Positions 1,648 through 58,297 of a stretch of DNA of 64,000 nucleotides are shown in pieces. Position 1 is the first letter of the stretch, and each line of letters begins with the position of its first letter. Location of the stretch: the sequence record OZ035790.1, one strand, 5' to 3'. The notes below the pieces were generated by a model. It did no database searches. It worked only from the letters and a program-made list of their open reading frames with translations, and was not told where the DNA came from. Source of the DNA: Felixounavirus LF110P4. Both the position numbers and the translations under genes were made by a program.

Positions 1648-3114
1648 ATGGCAGATATTACAGAAACACAAGAAAGCTTACCACCATTTAGAATGGGTGA
1701 AGTAGGTTCTTTGGGTCTGAAGGTTAAGAATGGAAGAATCTATGAAGAACCTCGTCAGGCACTAAGGTTCCCTGAAAGTATTAAAACTTTCCAATTAATG
1801 ATGCGTGACCCTGCTGTAGCAGCATCTGTAAATATTATTAAGATGTTTGTCAGAAAAGTCAACTGGAGATTCGTACCTCCAAAGGGAAAAGAGCAAGACC
1901 CTAAAATGCTTGAAAGAGCAGACTTCTTTAATTCTTTAATGGATGACATGGAGCATGATTGGGCAGATTTTATTAATTCTGTAATGTCATTCTGCACTTA
2001 TGGGTTCTGTGTTAACGAGAAAGTTTATAAGAAGCGTCAGGGTAAGAAAGGAAAGTACCAGTCAAAATTTGATGATGGTCTAATTGGATGGGCTAAATTA
2101 CCAATCAGAAACCAGTCAACGCTTGATAAGTGGTATTTTGACGAAGACTTTAGAAAAGTTACTGGTGTTAGGCAGAATCTTAGAAATGTTTCACATATTG
2201 CTGGAGCAATTAATCTTGGAGAAAGACCACTAACAAGAAAACTCCCACGAGCTAAATTCATGCTGTTTAAGTATGACGATGAATATGGAAACCCAGAAGG
2301 TCGTTCACCATTACTTAATGCCTATGTGCCGTGGAAGTATAAAGTTCAGATTGAAGAGTACGAAGCAGTCGGTGTTTCAAGAGACTTGGTAGGTATGCCA
2401 AAAATTGGTTTACCACCAGATTATCTGGATGAAAATGCAGAACCTGAAAAGAAAGCTTTCGTACAATACTGCAAAACTGTTGTTAACGATATGATTGCTA
2501 ATGATAGAGCAGGCTTAATCTGGCCTAGATATATCGACCCAGATACTAAAGAGGATATTTTCGAGTTCTCATTAGTTTCTAGACAGGGTGCTAAAGCATA
2601 CGATACAGGTTCTATTATTGACAGATATTCCAAGCAGATTATGATGGCATTTATGTCAGATGTTCTTGCTATGGGTCAGTCAAAATATGGTTCATTCTCT
2701 CTTGCAGATTCTAAGACAAGCTTACTAGCAATGTCAGTAGATATTCTGCTTAAGCAGATTAAGAACGTAATTAACCGTGATTTAGTTGCACAGACTTATG
2801 CTCTTAATATGTGGGACGATGAAGAACATGTACAAATCACTTATGATGATATCGAAACTCCAGACCTTGAAGCAATTGGTTCTTATATCCAGAAGACTGT
2901 TGCAGTAGGTGCTTTGGAAGTTGACAAAGAGCTATCTAACAAGCTTAGAGAGCATATTGGTCTTCCTCCTGCTGATGAGTCTCAGCCAGTATCTGAAAAG
3001 CTTTCTCCAAATAGCCAAAGTCGTTCAGGAGATGGTTATAAGACCGCTGGAGAAGGTACTGCAAAGACACCTTCAGCGAAAGACCCAAGCACAGCAAATA
3101 AGGCAAATAAATAA
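1648..3114 (+). CDS. portal protein
   Basis: ~490 aa ORF directly after terminase; ATG 1648 preceded by aggtga RBS; acidic/basic C-terminal tail; position and size typical of portal. Confidence 0.65.
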   Translation: MADITETQESLPPFRMGEVGSLGLKVKNGRIYEEPRQALRFPESIKTFQLMMRDPAVAASVNIIKMFVRKVNWRFVPPKGKEQDPKMLERADFFNSLMDDMEHDWADFINSVMSFCTYGFCVNEKVYKKRQGKKGKYQSKFDDGLIGWAKLPIRNQSTLDKWYFDEDFRKVTGVRQNLRNVSHIAGAINLGERPLTRKLPRAKFMLFKYDDEYGNPEGRSPLLNAYVPWKYKVQIEEYEAVGVSRDLVGMPKIGLPPDYLDENAEPEKKAFVQYCKTVVNDMIANDRAGLIWPRYIDPDTKEDIFEFSLVSRQGAKAYDTGSIIDRYSKQIMMAFMSDVLAMGQSKYGSFSLADSKTSLLAMSVDILLKQIKNVINRDLVAQTYALNMWDDEEHVQITYDDIETPDLEAIGSYIQKTVAVGALEVDKELSNKLREHIGLPPADESQPVSEKLSPNSQSRSGDGYKTAGEGTAKTPSAKDPSTANKANK

Positions 3115-3957: not shown

Positions 3958-5304
3958 ATGAGTTCGAATATCTTCAGACTTGCTGATAGATTATTCAACC
4001 AACCTTTACTAGCCACTGAATCATTAGCTCACTCAGCAGCAACTTATGTGAATAACAGATTGCTGGGTGATGTCCAAGCAGCAGTAAACTTTGATAAACC
4101 CAAAGGTGAAGCAAGAAGTCTTTTAAAAGTAAAAGATGACATTGCTATTATTCCTATTATGGGTGGTTTAACCCATCGTATGACATTCATTGATGCAATG
4201 TGTACTGGTGGATTAAGCTCTTATGAAGGTTTGCGTAGAGGCTTTGACGAAGCTTTAGCAGATGAGTCAATCAAGACTATTGTTCTGCATATTGATTCCG
4301 GTGGTGGTGAAGCTTCAGGTTGCTTTGAATTAGCACGTCACATTATGGCTTCAAGAGGCCAAAAGAAAATTATTGCTTATGTAGATGAGTTCGCTTGTTC
4401 CGCTGCATACGCTCTTGCATCTTCTGCTGAAGAAATTATTGCATCACCAGATGCAGATGTTGGTTCTATTGGTGTAATTATGGTTCATCAGGAATTAACT
4501 AAGGCATTTGAAAAGAATGGCGTAACAATTAACGTCATCAAAGCTGGTGAGTTTAAAGGTATGGGTTCACCATTCCAAGCACTCTCAGAAGAAAGCAAAG
4601 AAAGACTTCAAAAGAGAATTAATGATACCTACGCAACCTTTACAGGTTTTGTAGCCGAATCTCGTAATCTCTCTGAAGAAGCTGTAAAGAATACTGAGGC
4701 GAATGTTTATTCTGCTCAGGAAGCTCTTGAACTTGGTTTAATTAACTCAATCATGTCTCAAGATGATTTCTTAAATTACTTACAAGGTTCTGAAGAGGCT
4801 CCTGTAAGTTTAAACGTTAACAATTCAGGTGAAGAAATGACTGAACAAGAAAAGCAAGAACTAGAAGCTTTGCGTCTTCAGGTTGCTCAAATGAAAGCTA
4901 AAGAACAGGAAGCTGCTTTGTCAGATTTGACTAATAAGATTTCTGCTTCTGCTGAAGCTTTTGGATTTGATGCAAAAGAAGCTGCAACGACTATTTTAGG
5001 TGCTGGTCTTGATAACCCTCTGAGTGTTCTATTTATGAATGCTATGGAAGGTGCTAACCAGAAACTTAATGAAACTATCGCGTCCCATGCTTCTGCAATG
5101 GAAGAAAAAGAATCAGAAATTACCAAGCTGAAAGAAACTGCTGGTGCTGTTCTTGAACATTCCAACGCTATGGAAGAAGTGGGTAATGACGGCGAAGCTG
5201 ATTTGGTTGAAGAAGAAAAAGAACCAGCTAAGAATGCTTCCGAAGACACCGCTGAACAACGCAAACTGGCTCTCCAGAATGCTCTAAAATCTCTTATCAA
5301 ATAA
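3958..5304 (+). CDS. prohead protease / scaffold fusion (S49 ClpP-like peptidase with C-terminal coiled-coil acidic scaffold domain)
   Basis: N-terminal half resembles S49/SppA-type serine peptidases (HIDSGGGEASG, VDEFACSAAYALAS); C-terminal ~170 aa is E/K/A-rich and coiled-coil-like; sits between portal and capsid. Confidence 0.7.
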   Translation: MSSNIFRLADRLFNQPLLATESLAHSAATYVNNRLLGDVQAAVNFDKPKGEARSLLKVKDDIAIIPIMGGLTHRMTFIDAMCTGGLSSYEGLRRGFDEALADESIKTIVLHIDSGGGEASGCFELARHIMASRGQKKIIAYVDEFACSAAYALASSAEEIIASPDADVGSIGVIMVHQELTKAFEKNGVTINVIKAGEFKGMGSPFQALSEESKERLQKRINDTYATFTGFVAESRNLSEEAVKNTEANVYSAQEALELGLINSIMSQDDFLNYLQGSEEAPVSLNVNNSGEEMTEQEKQELEALRLQVAQMKAKEQEAALSDLTNKISASAEAFGFDAKEAATTILGAGLDNPLSVLFMNAMEGANQKLNETIASHASAMEEKESEITKLKETAGAVLEHSNAMEEVGNDGEADLVEEEKEPAKNASEDTAEQRKLALQNALKSLIK

Positions 5305-11286: not shown

Positions 11287-19305
<8,019 letters not shown>

Positions 19306-31445: not shown

Positions 31446-31961
31446 TCAACTTAGTTTTGCAAACTCTCCGTGGAGTTTCACAGCAGCTTCACAGTAAGCT
31501 TTATGGGCTTCTTCTTCCGTTGTGTATGTCCCTATATGTATAGTCTTGCCATTATGGTTAATCTGGGCTATCCACTTACCAGACTTGCTTCTACTTGTGC
31601 CTTTTAAGTTTTTTGATGTTCTAGGTTGTCTCCTGTTAGACATGTTCTGTTCTTTTGTGGCCTCTCTTAGATTGTCCCAAGCATTATTCAAACCATCTCC
31701 ATCTTTGTGGTCAATATGTTTATCAGGCCACTTACCTGTCATCCAGAACCAAGCAATTCGGTGATTACCTGTCCTGTACCCTAAAATCTGTGTGTGCATA
31801 TACACACCAGACCTTGTGCGCTTAATTGCTCCAGCTTGGCTTCCAATAACCACCCTACTACTATGTGGAGGTCTGCCAATCCATGTTAAGACCCCTGTTT
31901 CGGGGTCATAATCTAACCAAGACTTTAACTGTTCATGTGTGAATCCACAATCTCTCATCAA
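31446..31961 (-). CDS. HNH homing endonuclease with AP2 DNA-binding domain
   Basis: HNH_3-like IDHKDGDGLNNAWDNLR plus AP2-like GTSRSKSGKWIAQINHNGKTIHIGTYTTEEEA; overlaps DNA polymerase gene by 4 nt. Confidence 0.8.
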   Translation of the reverse strand: MMRDCGFTHEQLKSWLDYDPETGVLTWIGRPPHSSRVVIGSQAGAIKRTRSGVYMHTQILGYRTGNHRIAWFWMTGKWPDKHIDHKDGDGLNNAWDNLREATKEQNMSNRRQPRTSKNLKGTSRSKSGKWIAQINHNGKTIHIGTYTTEEEAHKAYCEAAVKLHGEFAKLS

Positions 31962-40537: not shown

Positions 40538-41584
40538 ATGGAGAAGTACACATTAAAAAAACTTCCCGATTCAGTTACACATGTCTTTATTGACTCTGAC
40601 AGTATTGCCTATAAAGGTGCTTGTGTAGTTGAGAAAGCAAAATATAAATATGTCAATAAACTCACAGCAGAAGAATCTGAATCATTTGATAATGCAAAAG
40701 ATGCTGCAAGATGGTTAGCAGACCAGAGAATCCTTGTAGAAGAGCTTGGCCTAGCATTTGATGAAGATGAATGGGAAAGACAGACTTGGAAAGAAGCTAA
40801 GAGTGAAAAAGAAGCTATCATGGCTACTCAGCAGGTTCTTCAGGAATGGCTTAAGGTTGTTGGTAAAGAAAGAACTTGGGTAGGTTATTTAACAGAGAAA
40901 GGTGTGCATAAACATAAAGACATTAAAGGTCTTGAGCACCAATATCAAGGGAACCGTAAAGATGCTGTCACACCAACACACTTAGTTGCTTGTCGTGAAT
41001 ACCTTCTGTCAAGACCAGAGTTCAAATTGATTCTTGATGGATTTGAAGCTGACTCTATCGTTATTGCTAAAGCTGAAAAGATGGGTAAAAAGGCTGCCTT
41101 AATGAGTATTGATAAAGACCTTCGCCAAGCTGAAGGGACTTACTGCATTGATATGACCTATGAAAAGTCGCCTTTGATTTTCATTGCTGATAACAACGTA
41201 GGTGAAATTTGGGATTGCCCAATAAAATCGACACCAAAAGCTAAGAAGACAGTTGGGGTAGGTTTTAAATTTCTTTGCTATCAAGCCGTGGCTGGTGATA
41301 ATGCGGATAATTATTTTGGCTTAAAGGGTGTTGGCAAGGTTACTATAATGAAAGCCCTTGAAGGCAAAACCACCTACAAAGAGTGTCTTGATGCAATTTA
41401 TGAGCTTTATGCTAAGAAAGAGTCATACACTTATATCTCGTGGGATGGTCAAACAATTACCAGAACACCTTTAGAGTTAATGCAGCAACACTTTTTCTTA
41501 GCTTATCAGGAAAGAAACAAGAAAGATGATTTCACTTTTGATAAGTATGGATGGACACCAAATGTTAACCCAACAAACTCTTAA
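40538..41584 (+). CDS. 5'-3' exonuclease / flap endonuclease (RNase H-like)
   Basis: N-terminal acidic PIN-like FIDSDSIAY; H3TH-like GLKGVGKVTIMKAL. Confidence 0.6.
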   Translation: MEKYTLKKLPDSVTHVFIDSDSIAYKGACVVEKAKYKYVNKLTAEESESFDNAKDAARWLADQRILVEELGLAFDEDEWERQTWKEAKSEKEAIMATQQVLQEWLKVVGKERTWVGYLTEKGVHKHKDIKGLEHQYQGNRKDAVTPTHLVACREYLLSRPEFKLILDGFEADSIVIAKAEKMGKKAALMSIDKDLRQAEGTYCIDMTYEKSPLIFIADNNVGEIWDCPIKSTPKAKKTVGVGFKFLCYQAVAGDNADNYFGLKGVGKVTIMKALEGKTTYKECLDAIYELYAKKESYTYISWDGQTITRTPLELMQQHFFLAYQERNKKDDFTFDKYGWTPNVNPTNS

Positions 41585-42053
41585 AGAATACCTACACTAT
41601 GACCCCGAAACAGGGGTCTTTACTTGGATTAAGAAGTCTGCTAGACACACAAAAATTGGCTCTGTTGCAGGTACAAACTTAAGAGGGTACACCAGAATTT
41701 ATTTGTTTGGTAAGGGTTATTATGCACATACTCTAGCTGTTCTGTATATGGATGGATACCTACCTGAGTGTGTTGACCATAAAAATCATGTAACACTAGA
41801 CAATCGATGGGTAAATCTTAGGGCATGTACATTATCAGAGAACCAATGCAATAGGTTGCTCAATAAGAACAATAAATCAGGTGTTAAAGGTGTGTACTAC
41901 AAAAAACAGTATGGTAAGTGGTCTACACAGATAACTTTTAAGAAGAAAGTTTACTTCTTCGGAAACTATGACACTATTGATGAAGCAGCAGAGGTTGTAA
42001 ATAGGGAACGCCAACGTTTACACAAAGAGTTTGCTAATAAAGGTGATGAATGA
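41547..42053 (+). CDS. HNH homing endonuclease with AP2 domain
   Basis: YDPETGVFTW, HNH_3-like VDHKNHVTLDNRWVNLR, AP2-like GVKGVYYKKQYGKWSTQITF; paralog of the 31446 and 55269 genes. Confidence 0.75.
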   Translation: MDGHQMLTQQTLKEYLHYDPETGVFTWIKKSARHTKIGSVAGTNLRGYTRIYLFGKGYYAHTLAVLYMDGYLPECVDHKNHVTLDNRWVNLRACTLSENQCNRLLNKNNKSGVKGVYYKKQYGKWSTQITFKKKVYFFGNYDTIDEAAEVVNRERQRLHKEFANKGDE

Positions 42054-48335: not shown

Positions 48336-50480
48336 ATGAACAAAGTACAGATTATTAAAAAGAATGGCTCACTTGAAGAACCTGATATCAAAAAAGTTTT
48401 AGCAGCAGTAACTAAGTCAGCTAACAGGGTTGGATATAAAGAACTCCCACCAGATGTTACCCAAGCTCTTGAGTCAGCATTTATGAGGATTCTGGTAAAG
48501 TCCACTAAACAGAATAATTTGCTAATTTCGGTAAATGATATTCACAGTATTGTTGAGGGTGCTTTGGCAGAAGTCAATCACGAAATCTATGAGTCTTACT
48601 CAACATATAGAAATTACCGTAAAGAAGTTGCTCAAAATTGGGATGAACTCTACCAGAAGACCAGAGATACACTCTTCTTAGGTGACAGAGAGAATGCTAA
48701 CTTTGACAGCAGTTTAATTTCTACAAAAGGTTCAATTATTCGTGGTTACCTGACTAAAGAAATCTTTAAGCAGTACCATTTAACACCAGAGGAACTTGAA
48801 GCCATTGAAAAAGGGTTTATCTATATCCACGATTTAAGAGACCTGATTTTTGGCGGCATTAACTGTTGCTTGTTTGACATTGGTAAAGTACTGAAAGGTG
48901 GCTTTGAGATGTCTGGCATCGAATACTGTGAACCGAAGTCTGTGCTGTCAGCCTTACAGGTTATTGGTGATGTAGTTCTTTCAGCAACTGCACAGCAATT
49001 TGGTGGATTTACTTTAGCAGAGATTGATAAGGTGCTTGTACCGTATGCTAAAAAGTCTCTACGCTACCATGCTGAGAAAGCAGCATCTTACGGTATTCCT
49101 AAAGAACATTACCACAATTATGTCATGGAGCAGCTACAGCTTGAATTAACTCAGGGTTTCCAGTCACTCGAAATGAAACTAAATACTGTACCTTGTAGCC
49201 GTGGTGATTTTGCATTTACAACTTTGACATTTGGATTACTTGACTCAGATATGTCTAATGAAGACAACCGACTGCAATACATGATTGCAAACACCATTCT
49301 TGATGTTCGCATGAATGGACAAGGTAAGAGTAAGAAGCCTGTTGTATTCCCTAAACTGGTTTATATTCATGACCAGAAGAGACACGATGAGAATATCTGT
49401 CAAGGCCAACTGTACAGTAAAGCTATAGAGTGTTGCTCTAAAGCGATGTATCCAGATTTCTTAAGTGTATCTGGTCATGGTGCTGTAGCAGAAGCTTTTG
49501 AGCGTTCTGGCAAGGTAATCTCGCCGATGGGTTGTAGAGCCTTCTTATCTCCATATCTTAACGAGGATGGGGAAGAGTTCTACGTTGGTCGTGCTAACAT
49601 TGGTGCTGTATCTTTGAACTTACCAATGATTTACCAGTATTCTAAAGAGAATGGTTTAGATTTCTGGAAAGAGCTTGATAAGTACCTAGAGATGATTCGC
49701 AACTTCCACAAGAAACGCTACGAAATGATTGCTAATATGCCAGCAAGTTCTAACCCTCTTGCGTTCACACAAGGTGGTCTGTACAAAGGAACTAAGAAAC
49801 CTACTGACAAGGTTGGTTGGGATATTGTGAAGTCCTTCACAGCTTCTTTTGGTGTTACTGCGCTTGATGAGTTGTCTGTTCTTGCTGAAGGTAAACGACT
49901 TCATGAAGTTGGAAGCTATAGTTTTGCATATGATGTTCTGGCATACATTAACATGAAAACCGAAGAGTTTAAAAATGAAGATGGCTTCTTATATGCCGTC
50001 TATGGTACTCCAGCAGAATCACTATGTGGGACTCAGCTAAAACAGTTCAGAGATATGTTTGGGGTTATCAAAGGTGTTTCCGATAAGGAATACTTTACAA
50101 ACAGTTTCCATATGAATGTTGTAGCAGACATCTCACCATTTGAGAAGCAGGACTTAGAAGAGCCATTCTTCCATATCTGTAGAGGCGGTAGAATCCAGTA
50201 TGTAAGAGTAGCTAACCCAGAAAACTTATCAGCACTTAAGAGCTGTATTACAAGAGGAATGTTGAAAGGTTTCTATCAGGGACTTAACTTTGACTTAGCA
50301 ATCTGTGAACATTGTGGTAACAGGCCAAAGGCTGATGTTGAAGAATGTGAAGTTTGTCACTCACATGATATCTCTGTGATTAACAGGGTGTGCGGGTACT
50401 TGTCATTCACAAAAATTAAAGGTCAGTCTCGAATGAATGACGCTAAGATGGCAGAAATTAAGGATAGGGTTTCTATGTAG
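48336..50480 (+). CDS. nrdD: anaerobic ribonucleoside-triphosphate reductase
   Basis: N-terminal ATP-cone; zinc ribbon CEHCGN...CEVC; glycyl-radical motif RVCGYLS near C-terminus; 714 aa colinear. Confidence 0.9.
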   Translation: MNKVQIIKKNGSLEEPDIKKVLAAVTKSANRVGYKELPPDVTQALESAFMRILVKSTKQNNLLISVNDIHSIVEGALAEVNHEIYESYSTYRNYRKEVAQNWDELYQKTRDTLFLGDRENANFDSSLISTKGSIIRGYLTKEIFKQYHLTPEELEAIEKGFIYIHDLRDLIFGGINCCLFDIGKVLKGGFEMSGIEYCEPKSVLSALQVIGDVVLSATAQQFGGFTLAEIDKVLVPYAKKSLRYHAEKAASYGIPKEHYHNYVMEQLQLELTQGFQSLEMKLNTVPCSRGDFAFTTLTFGLLDSDMSNEDNRLQYMIANTILDVRMNGQGKSKKPVVFPKLVYIHDQKRHDENICQGQLYSKAIECCSKAMYPDFLSVSGHGAVAEAFERSGKVISPMGCRAFLSPYLNEDGEEFYVGRANIGAVSLNLPMIYQYSKENGLDFWKELDKYLEMIRNFHKKRYEMIANMPASSNPLAFTQGGLYKGTKKPTDKVGWDIVKSFTASFGVTALDELSVLAEGKRLHEVGSYSFAYDVLAYINMKTEEFKNEDGFLYAVYGTPAESLCGTQLKQFRDMFGVIKGVSDKEYFTNSFHMNVVADISPFEKQDLEEPFFHICRGGRIQYVRVANPENLSALKSCITRGMLKGFYQGLNFDLAICEHCGNRPKADVEECEVCHSHDISVINRVCGYLSFTKIKGQSRMNDAKMAEIKDRVSM

Positions 50481-53208: not shown

Positions 53209-53529
53209 ATGAGCAAAGTTTATAACACTCGTAAATTACAGATTTTCGTACTGTGCCAGTTTATGGCTAAAGAATGCAACTTCTACTATTGTGGTACAGG
53301 TTTTATTAGCGATGATGATGGCTCATACCTCCCATTCAAAGAAGCTGTAAAACTCTTTAATGAAGAGAAAAGCTCTAAGAAAGATATTGAAAAGGTTAAG
53401 CTAACCTACAGCAAGAAAGATAAGAAGATTATCTGCCTAGATAACTTTGTGAAAGTTACTGGAGAAGCAAAAGAGTTTATGGATGAGAGTGAGATTTCAT
53501 TCACAAGCATCTTGAAAGTAGCTCAGTAA
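53209..53529 (+). CDS. hypothetical protein
   Basis: 106 aa ORF. Confidence 0.35.
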   Translation: MSKVYNTRKLQIFVLCQFMAKECNFYYCGTGFISDDDGSYLPFKEAVKLFNEEKSSKKDIEKVKLTYSKKDKKIICLDNFVKVTGEAKEFMDESEISFTSILKVAQ

Positions 53530-53540
53530 ACAGATACTAT

Positions 53541-53573
53541 AAGGGGACTGTAAAGGTTCCCTTTTTATTTTGG
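53541..53573 (+). terminator. intrinsic terminator
   Basis: aagggga-loop-tccctt then TTTTTATTTT. Confidence 0.5.
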
Positions 53574-53580
53574 AGGTAAA

Positions 53581-54096
53581 ATGTATCTGTCAAACCTGAA
53601 ACGTTCGGTTGCAATGTCAGTTCTAAGACTCAGCTTTGATGAGCGTCAAGAGTTTATAGACTCCCACAAATATGACCCTTCAAATTCTAATCACATGGTT
53701 CTTTGGAATCGTGATAACTTCCGTGAAAGAGCACTTGTCCGTTATTACCCACACTACACAATAGATAACCTGTATGAATGGTGTGTTGTGAAGAACACCA
53801 TTGCAACACTGAACAATCTTTGCAGGTATACGGGTAAGCAAACATTTACATTAGGTCATCACAAACCTGTTACAAAAGGTGGTGAACATCACTGTGCAAA
53901 CTGGTTTATCCAAACTAAAGCTGATAACCAGAAGCAAGGAGATAGCCTCCTAAGTATCCCTAAGATGACCTATGAAGAGCAAGAGAAATATATCAAAAAT
54001 AATATGCCAGATGTGCTTGACAACAACTATACAGATTTGGCAATATCTCTCCTGTTGAAGTTCGAGACAGTTTATAGGGCAACTTATAATGGCTAA
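53581..54096 (+). CDS. hypothetical protein with HNH-like motif
   Basis: LGHHKPVTKGGEHHCANWFIQTKADNQKQG resembles an HNH nuclease core. Confidence 0.4.
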   Translation: MYLSNLKRSVAMSVLRLSFDERQEFIDSHKYDPSNSNHMVLWNRDNFRERALVRYYPHYTIDNLYEWCVVKNTIATLNNLCRYTGKQTFTLGHHKPVTKGGEHHCANWFIQTKADNQKQGDSLLSIPKMTYEEQEKYIKNNMPDVLDNNYTDLAISLLLKFETVYRATYNG

Positions 54097-54367
54097 AGAA
54101 AAGTGGGAGATTTTAACATTAGTCAGTGAAGGAGGTAATGGTTGTGAAATGTACATGATACGTGGTCATGTTCCAGAGCCAATTGCACTTGAGATGGTAA
54201 ACAACTTTACAGATGGTTCTTACAAAGACTTAGGCGAACCAACTGTCAAGCAACAATGGGTTAAACCTGTACCAGACAGCACAGGTAACTGTAGTGTACT
54301 TTATCACGTTGTAGACCCTGCAAAATGCAAATCTGCAATGGCAGTAACAAACGTAACTTTTGATTGA
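54089..54367 (+). CDS. hypothetical protein
   Basis: 92 aa ORF. Confidence 0.35.
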   Translation: MAKEKWEILTLVSEGGNGCEMYMIRGHVPEPIALEMVNNFTDGSYKDLGEPTVKQQWVKPVPDSTGNCSVLYHVVDPAKCKSAMAVTNVTFD

Positions 54368-54378
54368 GAGAGAAAACT

Positions 54379-55260
54379 ATGAAAACATCTATCCGTGTTA
54401 CAGTTCATTCACCAACTAAAGGAACTCATGAAGAAGAGTTTAACATCATCCAATTTCCTTCTGGTGAGATTGGTGGACACTTTTCGCCAGAGTTTGTTGA
54501 TTTCACTGCTTATGCAGCATCATCCATCAACAATGTGATTATGATTGTAAAAGGTTATGATAAGGACACTTTGTTTGCTGTGGCACTTGCTAAAGAAGCA
54601 ATTGATGATTTAATTCCTCATGATTATGCTTTAAAGACTGTCATCTTTTACTACTTACCAAATGCACGTTATGACCGTCACATGTTTAAAGGCGACGCAG
54701 CAGCTTTAAAGGTTTTTGCTAAACAGGTAAATGCAATGGGATTTGGTGCAGTCTGTGCAGTTGACCCTCACAGTTACGTTCCAGATAACCTGTTTAACTG
54801 CTTCCAGAGTATTCCTCAAAAGGAGATTGCAGTCCACTATGCAAATGACCCACTGGTTGATTACTTAGTAGCCCCAGATGCAGGTGCTGCTAAGAAGGTT
54901 GCAGAGACCGCTAAAGAGGTGGATAAACCATATATCACAATGTCTAAGGTGCGTAACCTTAAGACTGGTGAAATTACTGGTATGCGAATCCTTGATGATG
55001 TTGATTTGACAGATAAAACCGTCATGATTCTGGATGATATCTGTGATGGTGGTCGAACCTTCATAGAAGCAGCTAAGCATCTTCGTGAAGCAGGTGCAAA
55101 ACGTGTGGAACTCTATGTAACACATGGTATCTTCTCTAAAGATGTTGAAAACCTTCTTGACAATGGTATTGACCACATCTACACTACAAACTCTTTAGGG
55201 GAAGCTAAAGACCGTGGTTTAACACATTATGGTCAAGTTACTGTAGCAAATTTGGACTAG
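54379..55260 (+). CDS. prs: ribose-phosphate pyrophosphokinase-like protein (PRPP synthetase family; candidate NARP1 Adps)
   Basis: phosphoribosyltransferase PRPP-binding motif VMILDDICDGGRTF; ~294 aa; paired with NAMPT-like gene. Confidence 0.75.
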   Translation: MKTSIRVTVHSPTKGTHEEEFNIIQFPSGEIGGHFSPEFVDFTAYAASSINNVIMIVKGYDKDTLFAVALAKEAIDDLIPHDYALKTVIFYYLPNARYDRHMFKGDAAALKVFAKQVNAMGFGAVCAVDPHSYVPDNLFNCFQSIPQKEIAVHYANDPLVDYLVAPDAGAAKKVAETAKEVDKPYITMSKVRNLKTGEITGMRILDDVDLTDKTVMILDDICDGGRTFIEAAKHLREAGAKRVELYVTHGIFSKDVENLLDNGIDHIYTTNSLGEAKDRGLTHYGQVTVANLD

Positions 55261-55268
55261 GTAACAGT

Positions 55269-55760
55269 ATGAATAAGGGTTATTTTGAAAAATACCTAAT
55301 ATATGAACCAGATACAGGTTTATTAATTTGGAAAGTAACCCTTTGCAGTACCGCTATTGCTGGTAATGTGGCTGGCACAAGGTCTAAGAAGGGTTATATC
55401 CAAGTCCAGATAAATAAGAAGAGGTACTATGCACATAATATTGCATGGATTATGTCTGGGGGTGAGATACCAAGTGGATATGAGATAGACCACATAGACC
55501 TTGATAAAGCTAATAATAAGTTGGAGAACTTAAGACTTAGCACAAAGTCACAAAATCAGAGGAATAGGGGTATACACAAGAATAATAAGACTGGTGTGAA
55601 GGGTGTAAGTTTTTGTAAACAAACAGGTCTTTACAAAGCAAGAGTCATGCTTTACCATAAAGAATACTTTTGTGGAAGATTTAAAACAGTAGAAGAAGCA
55701 AAAGAAGCTGTAATTAAAAAGCGAATAGAACTTCATGGTGAGTTTGCAAGACATAACTAA
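55269..55760 (+). CDS. HNH homing endonuclease with AP2 domain
   Basis: YEPDTGLLIW, HNH_3-like EIDHIDLDKANNKLENLR, AP2-like GVKGVSFCKQTGLYKARV; inserted between prs-like and NAMPT-like genes. Confidence 0.75.
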   Translation: MNKGYFEKYLIYEPDTGLLIWKVTLCSTAIAGNVAGTRSKKGYIQVQINKKRYYAHNIAWIMSGGEIPSGYEIDHIDLDKANNKLENLRLSTKSQNQRNRGIHKNNKTGVKGVSFCKQTGLYKARVMLYHKEYFCGRFKTVEEAKEAVIKKRIELHGEFARHN

Positions 55761-55776
55761 GAGAGAGAGATAAAAT

Positions 55777-57558
55777 ATGAGTAAGTCACTTTACGCAGTA
55801 CCAGCAGGTCTTAATGCAGATGCTTACAAGGCATCACATATATATCAGTATCCAGATGCTACACAGTATCTTATGTTGAACCTGACACCACGTAGTGACA
55901 AATGGTTTAACAGCCCCTTAGCAATTGACGGTGTAGTGGCTTTTGGTATTCAACGTTTTGTTAAAGACTACCTGATAGACCACTGGAATGCCACCTTCTT
56001 TGAACGTGACAAAAAAGAAGCAATTGACGAAATCTTAGAAGTCATGAACGGTGTTCTGGGTAAAGATGCTATTGGTCGAGAACATTGGGAAGCACTTCAC
56101 GACTTAGGTTATCTACCAGTTGAAGTATACGCTGTAGAAGAAGGTACAGTTGTTCCTATGCGTGTACCAATGATTGTCTTCCAGAATACTGTTTCAGGTT
56201 TCCATTGGGTAGCGGGGTATCTGGAAGATGCTTTCTCTGCTGAGATTTGGAAGGCTTGTACCATTGCAACTATTGCATTGCACTACAAACGTATCTGTAA
56301 GAAGTGGTCTGACCTTACTTGTGACAACGACTTGCATTTGCCTTATCAGTGCCATGATTTTGCTATGCGTGGTATGTCCGGCTTTACCGATGACGCATTT
56401 AACGCTGTAGGCCACTTAACCAGCTTTAAAGGAACTGATAGCTTCCCTGCTGTGTATACGGCTAAACGAATCTATGGACAGTCTTACCCAATATCTGATA
56501 TTGGTAGCTCTGTACCAGCCACTGAGCACTCTGTAATGTGTGCAAACATTGCTTGGGAAGGTGGTAATGAGTTGATTGAAGAAGAAAGACGCTTTAAAGG
56601 TGAGTTACAAACCTTCCGTCGTTTCTTAACAGAAACTTACCCAACTGGTATTGCAAGTATTGTTTCAGATACTTATAACTTCTGGAGAACTGTGTCAGAA
56701 ATCTTACCAGCACTCCGTAAAGAAATTATGGAACGTGATGGTAAACTGGTAATTCGCCCTGACTCTGGAGACCCTGTACATATTGTCACAGGTTATAAAG
56801 CAATCCACTTAGAGTGTGCTAAAAAGGCTTATTACGAGCACCTAAGCAAGCTTGAAGCCAGCGACACAATGTTGAATGCTGTTCTGAACATGAAGCTTGA
56901 AAACATCAACTATGGTATTGCTGGATGGCTACTGTCAGAAGGCTACGAAATGGTTGTTGACAGAGAAGACTTTGAAGTTGCTGATACAGTGCTGTTGAAA
57001 AACGCTTATATGGTTGGTTCTGCAAACGTTGTAACACGTCCTGTAGCGGAGATTGATGGAGCTATCAAGACACTGTATAACATCTTTGGGGGAACTATTA
57101 ACTCTAAAGGGTTTAAGGTACTGGATGAGCACATCGGCCTTATCTATGGTGACTCTATCACGCTGGAACGTGCAAACGAAATCCTGAAGCGTCTGTATGA
57201 AATGGGTTTTGCAAGCTCTAACGTAGTATTTGGTGTAGGCTCTTACACTTACCAGTACATGACTCGTGACACCTTTGCATTTGCTGTCAAAGCAACTCTT
57301 GCAAGCATTGGTGGTAAAGAGATTATGCTTGCAAAAGACCCTAAAACAGATAGTGGTGTTAAGAAATCTGCCTTTGGTGGTGTAGCACCTATGTGGGATG
57401 GTGAAAATCTGAAAGCTGTAGATGGCTATGGGTTCCAGAGCTTTGCAGATGCACTTGAACACCCAGCTTGTGCTTTACGTCTAGTCTTTAGTGACTCTGA
57501 GCAGTTCGGCTACACAACTCTTGGTGATATTCGAAATAATATTGACAAGCAGCTTTAA
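55777..57558 (+). CDS. nadV: nicotinamide phosphoribosyltransferase-like protein (NadV/NAMPT family; candidate NARP1 Namat)
   Basis: 593 aa; overall resemblance to NAMPT and genomic pairing with PRPP-synthetase-like gene. Confidence 0.7.
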   Translation: MSKSLYAVPAGLNADAYKASHIYQYPDATQYLMLNLTPRSDKWFNSPLAIDGVVAFGIQRFVKDYLIDHWNATFFERDKKEAIDEILEVMNGVLGKDAIGREHWEALHDLGYLPVEVYAVEEGTVVPMRVPMIVFQNTVSGFHWVAGYLEDAFSAEIWKACTIATIALHYKRICKKWSDLTCDNDLHLPYQCHDFAMRGMSGFTDDAFNAVGHLTSFKGTDSFPAVYTAKRIYGQSYPISDIGSSVPATEHSVMCANIAWEGGNELIEEERRFKGELQTFRRFLTETYPTGIASIVSDTYNFWRTVSEILPALRKEIMERDGKLVIRPDSGDPVHIVTGYKAIHLECAKKAYYEHLSKLEASDTMLNAVLNMKLENINYGIAGWLLSEGYEMVVDREDFEVADTVLLKNAYMVGSANVVTRPVAEIDGAIKTLYNIFGGTINSKGFKVLDEHIGLIYGDSITLERANEILKRLYEMGFASSNVVFGVGSYTYQYMTRDTFAFAVKATLASIGGKEIMLAKDPKTDSGVKKSAFGGVAPMWDGENLKAVDGYGFQSFADALEHPACALRLVFSDSEQFGYTTLGDIRNNIDKQL

Positions 57559-57570
57559 AAGTATATGATA

Positions 57571-57597
57571 AGAGGCTCCTACGGGAGCCTTTTTAAT
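57571..57597 (+). terminator. intrinsic terminator
   Basis: gaggctcc-tacg-ggagcc then TTTTT. Confidence 0.65.
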
Positions 57598-57611: not shown

Positions 57612-57956
57612 ATGGACAACCTTTCCATATGGTTTAACAAGAAACCTGTGCAACCGAAATACTTACAAGTTGCCTATACAGACATCCTTGAAGTTCTCGG
57701 TAAAGAAAAGTTTGAAAAGTTTTGTGAAGGTATCTACAATCACCACTGCCAATTTGCTACAAAAGAAGGTATGTTTGTCATAGAACAGTTCTTTGGCAGA
57801 GACCCAGATGACTACGAAGAGATTAGCTTTGTAATGAAATACATGATAGAGTATATTGAAAATCGTGGATTCGAAGTTAATCCTGAATTTTATGAACATG
57901 AGGGTGTGCCTTTAGCAAAAGGTTTTGATGGCATACTCGTTAACTGGACTTGGTGA
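57612..57956 (+). CDS. hypothetical protein
   Basis: 114 aa with ggag RBS. Confidence 0.4.
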   Translation: MDNLSIWFNKKPVQPKYLQVAYTDILEVLGKEKFEKFCEGIYNHHCQFATKEGMFVIEQFFGRDPDDYEEISFVMKYMIEYIENRGFEVNPEFYEHEGVPLAKGFDGILVNWTW

Positions 57957-57961
57957 AAATT

Positions 57962-58297
57962 ATGAAAATCAAAGAGATGAACATCAACATTGTCTTAGAA
58001 GAGCGTTGGGAGAACATCAAGAAACCTGAAAATGGTCATAAGTTCCTTAACAAAATCTTGGTAGCAGCTAAAGAAGAACTGACTGGAAAGGTTGCAGCAG
58101 CAATCACAATAAAGGTTTGTGTAAAAGGTCTTCCACAACATCACCAGTTTGCACTTGACGAGTTTAAAGAAAGCTTCTACAATCCAAACAAACAGATGCT
58201 TGAAAGTAACTTTGCAGTATCTACAAGTATCGTTCATGACAGAAGCTTTATCCTTTACAAAAATATGAGAGGTGAGTCATGCAAGCATATTGGATAG
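57962..58297 (+). CDS. hypothetical protein
   Basis: track ORF 57950 (TTG) trimmed to ATG 57962. Confidence 0.35.
   Translation: MKIKEMNINIVLEERWENIKKPENGHKFLNKILVAAKEELTGKVAAAITIKVCVKGLPQHHQFALDEFKESFYNPNKQMLESNFAVSTSIVHDRSFILYKNMRGESCKHIG

Follow-up and report, generated by a model that had tools for sequence, protein, structure and literature searches.

A gene pair located at positions 54379-57558 of a 64,000-nucleotide stretch of DNA from Felixounavirus LF110P4 (sequence record OZ035790.1; the whole stretch is hereafter called the window) very probably represents the NAD+ reconstitution pathway 1 (NARP1) of Felixounavirus, composed of the enzymes Adps and Namat. Three open reading frames (ORFs) are found on the plus strand of this interval, and they code for a protein resembling ribose-phosphate pyrophosphokinase (Prs), an HNH endonuclease and a 593-amino-acid (aa) protein resembling nicotinamide phosphoribosyltransferase (NAMPT). 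The presence and positions of these three ORFs had been described in an earlier sequence-only reading of the window and were confirmed by ORF, Pfam and PHROG analysis. The same reading had proposed that the Prs-like and NAMPT-like genes form NARP1, and results from this study support that proposal: the two genes are positional orthologues of genes 79 and 80 of the Felixounavirus Bas63 (JohannRWettstein), with gap-free protein identities of 78% (230/293) for Adps and 97% (576/593) for Namat.

The proposed pathway would begin with a NAD+-depleting host defence, such as SIR2-HerA, type I Thoeris, DSR1/2 or SEFIR, cleaving NAD+ into ADP-ribose (ADPR) and nicotinamide. Adps would attach the beta-gamma pyrophosphate from ATP to ADPR at its 1'' position to give ADPR-pyrophosphate (ADPR-PP), and Namat would condense ADPR-PP with nicotinamide directly into NAD+, with neither a nicotinamide mononucleotide (NMN) intermediate nor an NMN adenylyltransferase (NMNAT). 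Regeneration of NAD+ would let the phage complete its replication. Both the chemistry and the anti-defence effect, demonstrated in homologues, are predicted for the phage studied here from orthology and conserved residues.

Orthology with NARP1 of Bas63

Comparison of the window with the NARP1 locus of Bas63 (MZ501086; bas63_0079 coding for Adps and bas63_0080 for Namat) revealed two systems of the same genus with the same protein lengths (293 and 593 aa) and the same position, after nrdG and four small genes and before rIIA/rIIB. The two systems agree at each catalytic or specificity residue examined, and a Namat insertion of about 85 aa is also common to both. Bas63 differs in having a 45-nt spacer with a GC hairpin where the window has the HNH gene, so that its two genes are adjacent, as they also are in Felixounavirus LF82P1, and in that the N-terminal two thirds of its Adps are of another allele.

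NARP1 was discovered by deletion of genes 79-80 in Bas63 (bioRxiv 10.1101/2024.02.11.579819). The deletion mutant formed about 20-fold fewer plaques on SIR2-HerA cells, NAD+ depletion was deeper during its infection, and ADPR-PP (m/z 720.010) was detected only if wild-type Bas63 and the defence system were combined. Furthermore, Bas63 overcomes SIR2-HerA in a host lacking both pncC and nadR (bioRxiv 10.1101/2024.02.11.579819). The product of the Bas63 pathway is not NMN.

These published results bear directly on classical NAD+ salvage, which the sequence-only reading had kept as an alternative. In a salvage or NARP2-like pathway the Prs homologue would make phosphoribosyl pyrophosphate (PRPP), the NAMPT homologue would convert it to NMN, and host NadR, host PncC plus NadD, or an unseen phage NMNAT would finish the synthesis. 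Database names agree with such a pathway, as Pfam, PHROG and NCBIfam call the two proteins Prs and NAMPT/NAPRTase, and Namat passes the cut-off of the NF006629 equivalog model (469 bits against 405). The success of Bas63 in the absence of host NadR and PncC and the formation of ADPR-PP in vivo argue against it, and in the published phylogeny NARP2-type Nampt genes are placed in phages without Adps. Taken with the residue signatures and gene searches described below, this makes salvage a very unlikely explanation of the locus.

Signature motifs of Namat

The namat gene (55777..57558, plus strand) codes for a 593-aa protein of the NAMPT fold, the orthologue of Bas63_0080. Pfam matches were obtained to NAPRTase (6.9e-35) and NAMPT_N (9.5e-6), and the protein matches PHROG 448 at 2e-201. 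Seven of the 17 amino acid differences from Bas63 Namat lie within residues 2-34, and the first 90 nt of the gene are 78% identical to those of Bas63. The ribosome-binding site GAGAGAGAGA is kept upstream of the ATG.

Structural work on the Namat of SPbetaL1 has described a conserved catalytic core and a selectivity clamp made up of a loop (SCL) and a helix (SCH) (PMC12774641). All catalytic residues of the window Namat could be aligned to SPbetaL1, namely D15, Y17, F195, R198, D221, H251, R327, D329, G458-D459, G488-S489 and T496-R497-D498. The selectivity-clamp helix, GSYTYQYMTRD at residues 488-498 (57238..57270, plus strand), fits the published consensus GS-X-Phi1-X-Phi2-X-Phi3-TRD, in which X is aromatic at positions 3 and 7 (PMC12774641). 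The corresponding segment is GSFTYQYNTRD in SPbetaL1 Namat and GGALLQKVDRD in Xanthomonas Nampt. Methionine occupies the Phi3 position in the window protein, where asparagine or valine is more usual. At the selectivity-clamp loop, Lys42-Trp43 (55900..55905, plus strand) aligns to R40-V41 of SPbetaL1, and the loop residues are identical in Bas63. Lysine or tyrosine at the third SCL position is reported to go with stacking of the fourth residue on the adenine, as in Bas63 Namat (PMC12774641). The window Namat thus carries the adenine-clamp signature that canonical Nampt lacks, which is a further point against salvage.

An AlphaFold2 model of Namat, built with 38 homologues, reached a pLDDT of 93. 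Its top structural matches were two crystal structures of SPbetaL1 Namat, 9w5x and 9w5w, at a target TM-score of 0.93-0.95, with Haemophilus ducreyi NadV and mammalian NAMPT ranking below them. Overall, our analysis suggests that the window Namat would prefer ADPR-PP over PRPP, a preference that has been demonstrated for SPbetaL1 Namat only (PMC12774641). The SPbetaL1 system shares with the window the two-gene pathway, the Namat fold, the catalytic residues and an SCH signature of the same type; it differs in its Namat sequence (37-38% identity in a structure-based alignment), in the Arg40 of its SCL in place of the Lys-Trp of the window, and in the length of its Namat, which has 491 aa and no counterpart of the two insertions described next.

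The larger of these insertions, a domain of about 85 aa at residues 339-427 (56791..57057, plus strand), is specific to Ounavirinae and absent from SPbetaL1 Namat and from NAMPTs; the second comprises 15 aa (residues 258-272) relative to the same proteins. The larger insertion occurs only in Felix-O1-like phages, in which it was found in 253 records at identities down to 44% (Citrobacter and Shigella phages). Its prediction is confident both in context (pLDDT 93-97) and alone (93.7), and no recognisable structural relative of it was found. The paper on the Namat structure was not found to comment on it in its main text (PMC12774641). Bas63 Namat has the insertion as well, which makes it a feature of a known protein.

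Chromosomal proteins of about 496 aa annotated as 'nicotinate phosphoribosyltransferase' in Klebsiella, Cronobacter, Kosakonia, Phytobacter and Erwinia show 46-48% identity to the window Namat and possess the Namat-type motif GS(Y/F)TYQYNTRD. This suggests that these enterobacterial proteins are mis-annotated Namat-like enzymes of bacteria.

Adps and its donor-site loop

The adps gene (54379..55260, plus strand) codes for a 293-aa protein of Prs-like fold, the orthologue of Bas63_0079. The reading frame is open from a TTG at 54364 to 55260; the ATG at 54379 corresponds to the start annotated in Bas63 and is preceded, at a distance of 7 nt, by the Shine-Dalgarno-like run GAGAGAGA. Pfam matches were to Pribosyltran (8e-12) and Pribosyl_synth (4.6e-10), and the PHROG match was to PHROG 619, 'ribose-phosphate pyrophosphokinase' (1.6e-96). 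The PRPP-binding motif mentioned in the sequence-only reading, VMILDDICDGGRTF, was located at residues 215-228. The protein is 100% identical to its LF82P1 counterpart, and alignment gave identities of 33% to the ICP1 homologue and about 31% to that of SPbetaL1.

The protein was further compared with the Prs models of NCBIfam, which has no Adps- or Namat-specific model and could serve here only to test negatively for Prs. Among the Prs equivalog models, the highest score was 104.5 bits against a cut-off of 296, and all Prs equivalog cut-offs were failed. The sole Prs model passed was the broad subfamily model TIGR01251 (122 bits against a cut-off of 113). Adps is also 22 aa shorter than E. coli Prs and differs from it at the C-terminus. 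Since it falls far under every Prs equivalog threshold, it is Prs-like in fold and not a bona fide Prs. A sequence search of the PDB returned canonical Prs structures alone, the best being 4twb (3e-18); the ICP1 structures are outside the PDB copy searched, and ICP1 was compared by alignment to its GenBank gene.

Structures of ICP1 Adps revealed a catalytic Lys185 and a remodelled donor loop at Cys215-Ser220 with D212, D213 and D216, as well as ADPR contacts by F18, R87, F92, H121 and D161, and the K185A substitution abolishes ADPR-PP formation (PMC13586617). Residues were mapped in an alignment of the window, Bas63, ICP1 and SPbetaL1 proteins and E. coli Prs. Lys190 of the window Adps (54946..54948, plus strand) corresponds to the catalytic beta-hairpin Lys185. 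The donor-site pyrophosphate loop DDICDGGRTF occupies residues 219-228 (55033..55062, plus strand), and within it D219-D220-I221-C222-D223 and F228 correspond to D212-D213-I214-C215-D216 and F221 of ICP1; the counterpart in E. coli Prs is DDMIDTGGTL, and the ribose-5-phosphate loop of canonical Prs has the form DxxIDTGGT. Of the ADPR contacts, F26, R97, H131 and D167 are kept at the positions of ICP1 F18, R87, H121 and D161. Taken by themselves these contacts do not discriminate, because most of them are also conserved in E. coli Prs. By alignment alone, the window and ICP1 proteins have in common the Prs-like fold elements, the catalytic lysine, the DDICD loop and the Phe/Arg/His/Asp contacts. 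The substrate-residue comparison that the sequence-only reading had recommended came out on the NARP1 side. Pyrophosphorylation of ADPR by the window Adps appears probable from these residues, and the low Prs scores together with the remodelled DDICD loop count against salvage.

Comparison of the adps genes revealed a mosaic (noted for window 54379-54830): against Bas63, the 5' two thirds show 57-79% nucleotide identity and the 3' third 86-96%. The genus therefore holds two Adps alleles; relative to the window protein, 121 records have at least 95% amino acid identity and 91 have 60-80%.

The location of the two genes, just downstream of nrdA, nrdB, nrdD and nrdG, raises the alternative that the Prs-like protein belongs to the adjacent nrd/thymidylate synthase module of nucleotide metabolism and increases the PRPP available to phage DNA synthesis. 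The counterpoints given for salvage apply here as well. Moreover, this lineage always has Adps together with Namat, and when SPbetaL1 Adps was tried with ribose-5-phosphate and with ADPR, ADPR was the substrate named for the pathway. Nucleotide-precursor supply is the least probable of the explanations considered, and we give it hardly any credence.

Search for NMNAT and accessory genes

NARP2 (NadV/NatV of KVP40) and canonical Prs/Nampt salvage have homologous folds and lead to the same end product, NAD+; they differ from the window system in that NARP2 uses PRPP and requires an NMNAT/Nudix enzyme, whereas the window signatures are of the Namat and Adps type and no such gene was found. The search covered the remaining 80 ORFs in the window with a length of 60 aa or more, which were scanned against Pfam in three batches at E <= 0.001; as each batch matched fewer than 25 families, the family lists are complete at this threshold. 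None of these 80 ORFs contains a CTP_transf_like (NMNAT), NUDIX, NadR-type, Macro or RyR domain, in agreement with the sequence-only reading, which had seen no NMNAT in the window. For the rest of the genome, which that reading had wanted checked, Bas63 was used as a proxy over about 26 kb past the region matching the window. There, no NMNAT or Nudix enzyme was found among the matching families listed (25 of 28) for the 24 larger annotated proteins of the Bas63 remainder. The check is therefore negative for the window ORFs themselves and, beyond the window, for the listed matches of a relative. Salvage is unsupported because these scans were negative and because of the published result with the host lacking nadR and pncC.

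Some NARP1 operons are reported to add a Macro-domain ADPR-1''-phosphatase, Adpp, forming NARP1-AP (bioRxiv 10.64898/2026.01.28.702374), and some add a cyclic ADPR (cADPR) glycosidase with an RyR domain (PF02026), RyDEP (bioRxiv 10.64898/2026.05.28.727677). No Macro-domain gene lies within two genes of adps or namat, and neither Pfam nor NCBIfam gave a match for the ORFs on either side (53209-54367 and 57612-58297). The RyR domain PF02026 is absent from all window ORFs. About 8 kb downstream of its NARP1 genes, Bas63 codes for a 'putative phosphatase' of 261 aa with a Macro domain (positions 2279-3064 of its stretch L006). By synteny, an orthologue of this gene is predicted at about 65390-66175 in LF110P4, starting about 1.4 kb past the end of the window. 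The Bas63 protein belongs to a very widespread phage family of Poa1p-like Macro proteins, some members of which adjoin Adps genes, and it could act in trans in the manner of Adpp of NARP1-AP.

Several observations weigh against assigning the locus to NARP1. Experimental data come from relatives, with genetics and metabolomics for Bas63 and enzymology and structures for SPbetaL1 and ICP1. Adps enzymology in particular is that of the SPbetaL1 and ICP1 homologues, which are 31-33% identical, and not of the Felixounavirus enzyme. Genetic testing exists for the Bas63 Adps allele alone, from which the window protein departs over much of its length (58-75% amino acid identity over residues 1-180, 92-98% over residues 181-293). 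Two ICP1 contacts, F92 and F223, are replaced by M102 and E230 in the window Adps, and Bas63 has the same replacements. Namat homologues retain residual PRPP-to-NMN activity in vitro (PMC12774641). Finally, about a quarter of the LF110P4 genome lies beyond the window and was examined only via its relative Bas63.

Source lineage and probable transcription unit

The window derives from the genus Felixounavirus (Ounavirinae). Megablast of the 4-kb region matched 258 phage records at a top identity of 96.7%, nearly all of them Felix-O1-like phages of Escherichia, Salmonella, Shigella and Citrobacter hosts. Across 24 kb the closest records are 95-96% identical and none is identical. The remaining window genes form a Felix-O1-type set comprising terminase, capsid, tail, thymidylate synthase, dihydrofolate reductase (DHFR), DNA polymerase A, NrdA/B/D/G and rIIA/B genes. 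An exact-sequence contig look-up identified one independent metagenomic contig of 6.7 kb with an identical Namat and unchanged gene order.

Two terminator-like hairpins were identified by consensus scan on the plus strand around the locus. The upstream one (53541..53563) has a stem of 9 bp with a T-run behind it (RNA fold energy -14.1 kcal/mol, z = -2.0) and probably delimits, on the upstream side, the transcription unit holding adps and namat. The downstream one (57570..57593), 12 nt past the namat stop, has a stem of 10 bp, again with a T-run behind it (RNA fold energy -16.6 kcal/mol, z = -2.9), and would serve as the terminator. Five genes lie between the two hairpins: two small genes, adps, the HNH gene and namat. 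In the adps-namat interval the same scan found nothing resembling a terminator, however weak. Promoter-like matches numbered 33 against a shuffled expectation of 16.4 in this A+T-rich stretch and are not evidence of function.

The two small genes, both on the plus strand, code for proteins of 171 aa (53581-54096; PHROG 3500, counterpart bas63_0077) and 92 aa (54089-54367; PHROG 4726, counterpart bas63_0078). Neither protein has a Pfam or NCBIfam match, and the 171-aa protein shows a weak HNH-like PHROG match (2.3e-6). The 171-aa protein was considered as a candidate conserved accessory of NARP1: members of its family are also found in Phapecoctavirus, where possible Adps- and Namat-like genes follow about 2 kb downstream; a helicase intervenes there and the annotations are unreliable. 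Elsewhere in the window, nrdD is one unbroken ORF of 714 aa (48336-50480), while the Bas63 annotation joins nrdD from two pieces separated by an intron that bears a homing endonuclease. ARAGORN found no tRNA genes in the window (1-64000); Bas63 has an annotated cluster of 26 tRNAs in the part of its genome beyond the window.

HNH endonuclease gene and the adps-namat spacer

The gene between adps and namat (55269..55760, plus strand) codes for a putative free-standing HNH homing endonuclease of 163 aa (HNH_3 5.5e-19; PHROG 99 'HNH endonuclease' 1.5e-68). The sequence-only reading had described the pair as split by an HNH-AP2 homing endonuclease. The gene does lie between the two, and it is intergenic and interrupts neither coding sequence. 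The AP2 part of that description is weaker, since the AP2 match (5e-4, 20.7 bits) is under the Pfam cut-off of 33.3 bits. A group I intron or intein context was considered for this gene and rejected, as it is intergenic with its own start codon. Packing is tight: the HNH gene starts 8 nt past the adps stop and ends 16 nt before the namat ATG, so that adps and namat are 516 nt apart on the same strand with only this gene between them. In the literature, Adps is recognised operationally by a neighbouring Namat gene in a phage genome.

About 258 related phage records carry the locus, and 61 of them, Felix O1 included, have the HNH gene. LF82P1 and Bas63 have instead a 45-nt spacer with a GC hairpin followed by the namat ribosome-binding site (about 4380-4425 of LF82P1 stretch L007 and 13629-13673 of Bas63 stretch L002, the site of window 55261-55776). 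This hairpin, AGGGGCUUAAAAGCCCCAUUUU, comprises 6 bp of G+C followed by UUUU (fold z = -3.2) and may act in attenuation or in RNA stability. Compared with LF82P1 and Bas63, the HNH gene is a clean insertion that replaces the spacer hairpin; neither reading frame is disturbed by it, and namat retains its ribosome-binding site.

The sequences flanking the insertion are also variable. The last adps codons differ synonymously among Felix-O1-like genomes, and the first 104 nt of namat are bimodal relative to the window: 80 records are at least 95% identical, and 112 are 60-80% (about 76%) identical. This dimorphic tract beside the HNH gene (55246-55880) looks like a homing-endonuclease co-conversion or target-immunity tract. 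Two paralogues of the HNH gene, with HNH_3 and AP2 matches and 37-39% identity, are found in the window at 31446-31961 (minus strand) and 41526-42053 (plus strand). Pfam also flags an ORF of the SegE-type GIY-YIG family among those between 23.6 and 44.2 kb and a NUMOD3 ORF among those between 44.2 and 63.8 kb. Variable numbers of homing-endonuclease genes are a known trait of Felixounavirus genomes (PMC8300805), and the free-standing HNH homing endonucleases found in Felix-O1-like phages and in T4-like ones are likewise small intergenic HNH_3 genes with polymorphic presence and diverged flanks. By these sequence features, the HNH gene is classed as a mobile selfish homing-endonuclease insertion and not as a component of the pathway.

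It could be argued that this insertion broke the operon and left a decaying or uncoupled remnant that is not expressed as a unit. The displacement of the native spacer and its hairpin is compatible with such an outcome, as is a promoter-like TTGACA-17-TACACT within the 3' end of adps. Neither ORF is truncated or has lost a key residue, the namat ribosome-binding site survives, no terminator-like site separates the genes, and the arrangement is shared by 61 sequenced phages; a remnant is accordingly most improbable. A different extension, in which Ounavirinae NARP1 has an added layer of control, is possible but doubtful. In it, the large Namat insertion would be a regulatory, oligomerisation or ligand/partner-binding module tuning NAD+ rebuilding, and, separately, loss of the attenuator-like hairpin could change the stoichiometry of the two enzymes in endonuclease-positive phages.

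Significance for Felix-O1-like phages

The locus is an orthologue of the archetypal NARP1 and is already known. The novelty attached to it in the sequence-only reading was overrated, as the published archetype of the pathway comes from this phage lineage; the interest of the finding is low because an already described archetypal system is seen in its home lineage. Its value lies mainly in correct annotation, since databases still name these proteins 'ribose-phosphate pyrophosphokinase' and 'nicotinamide/nicotinate phosphoribosyltransferase'. New questions are confined to the uncharacterised Namat insertion and the endonuclease-linked polymorphism. The finding also matters for host-range prediction and phage-therapy design with Felix-O1-like phages. 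Resistance to aRES, which makes ADPR-1''-phosphate, is not predicted by the pair unless a phosphatase acts in trans; what the pair does predict is resistance to SIR2-HerA, type I Thoeris and DSR1/2.

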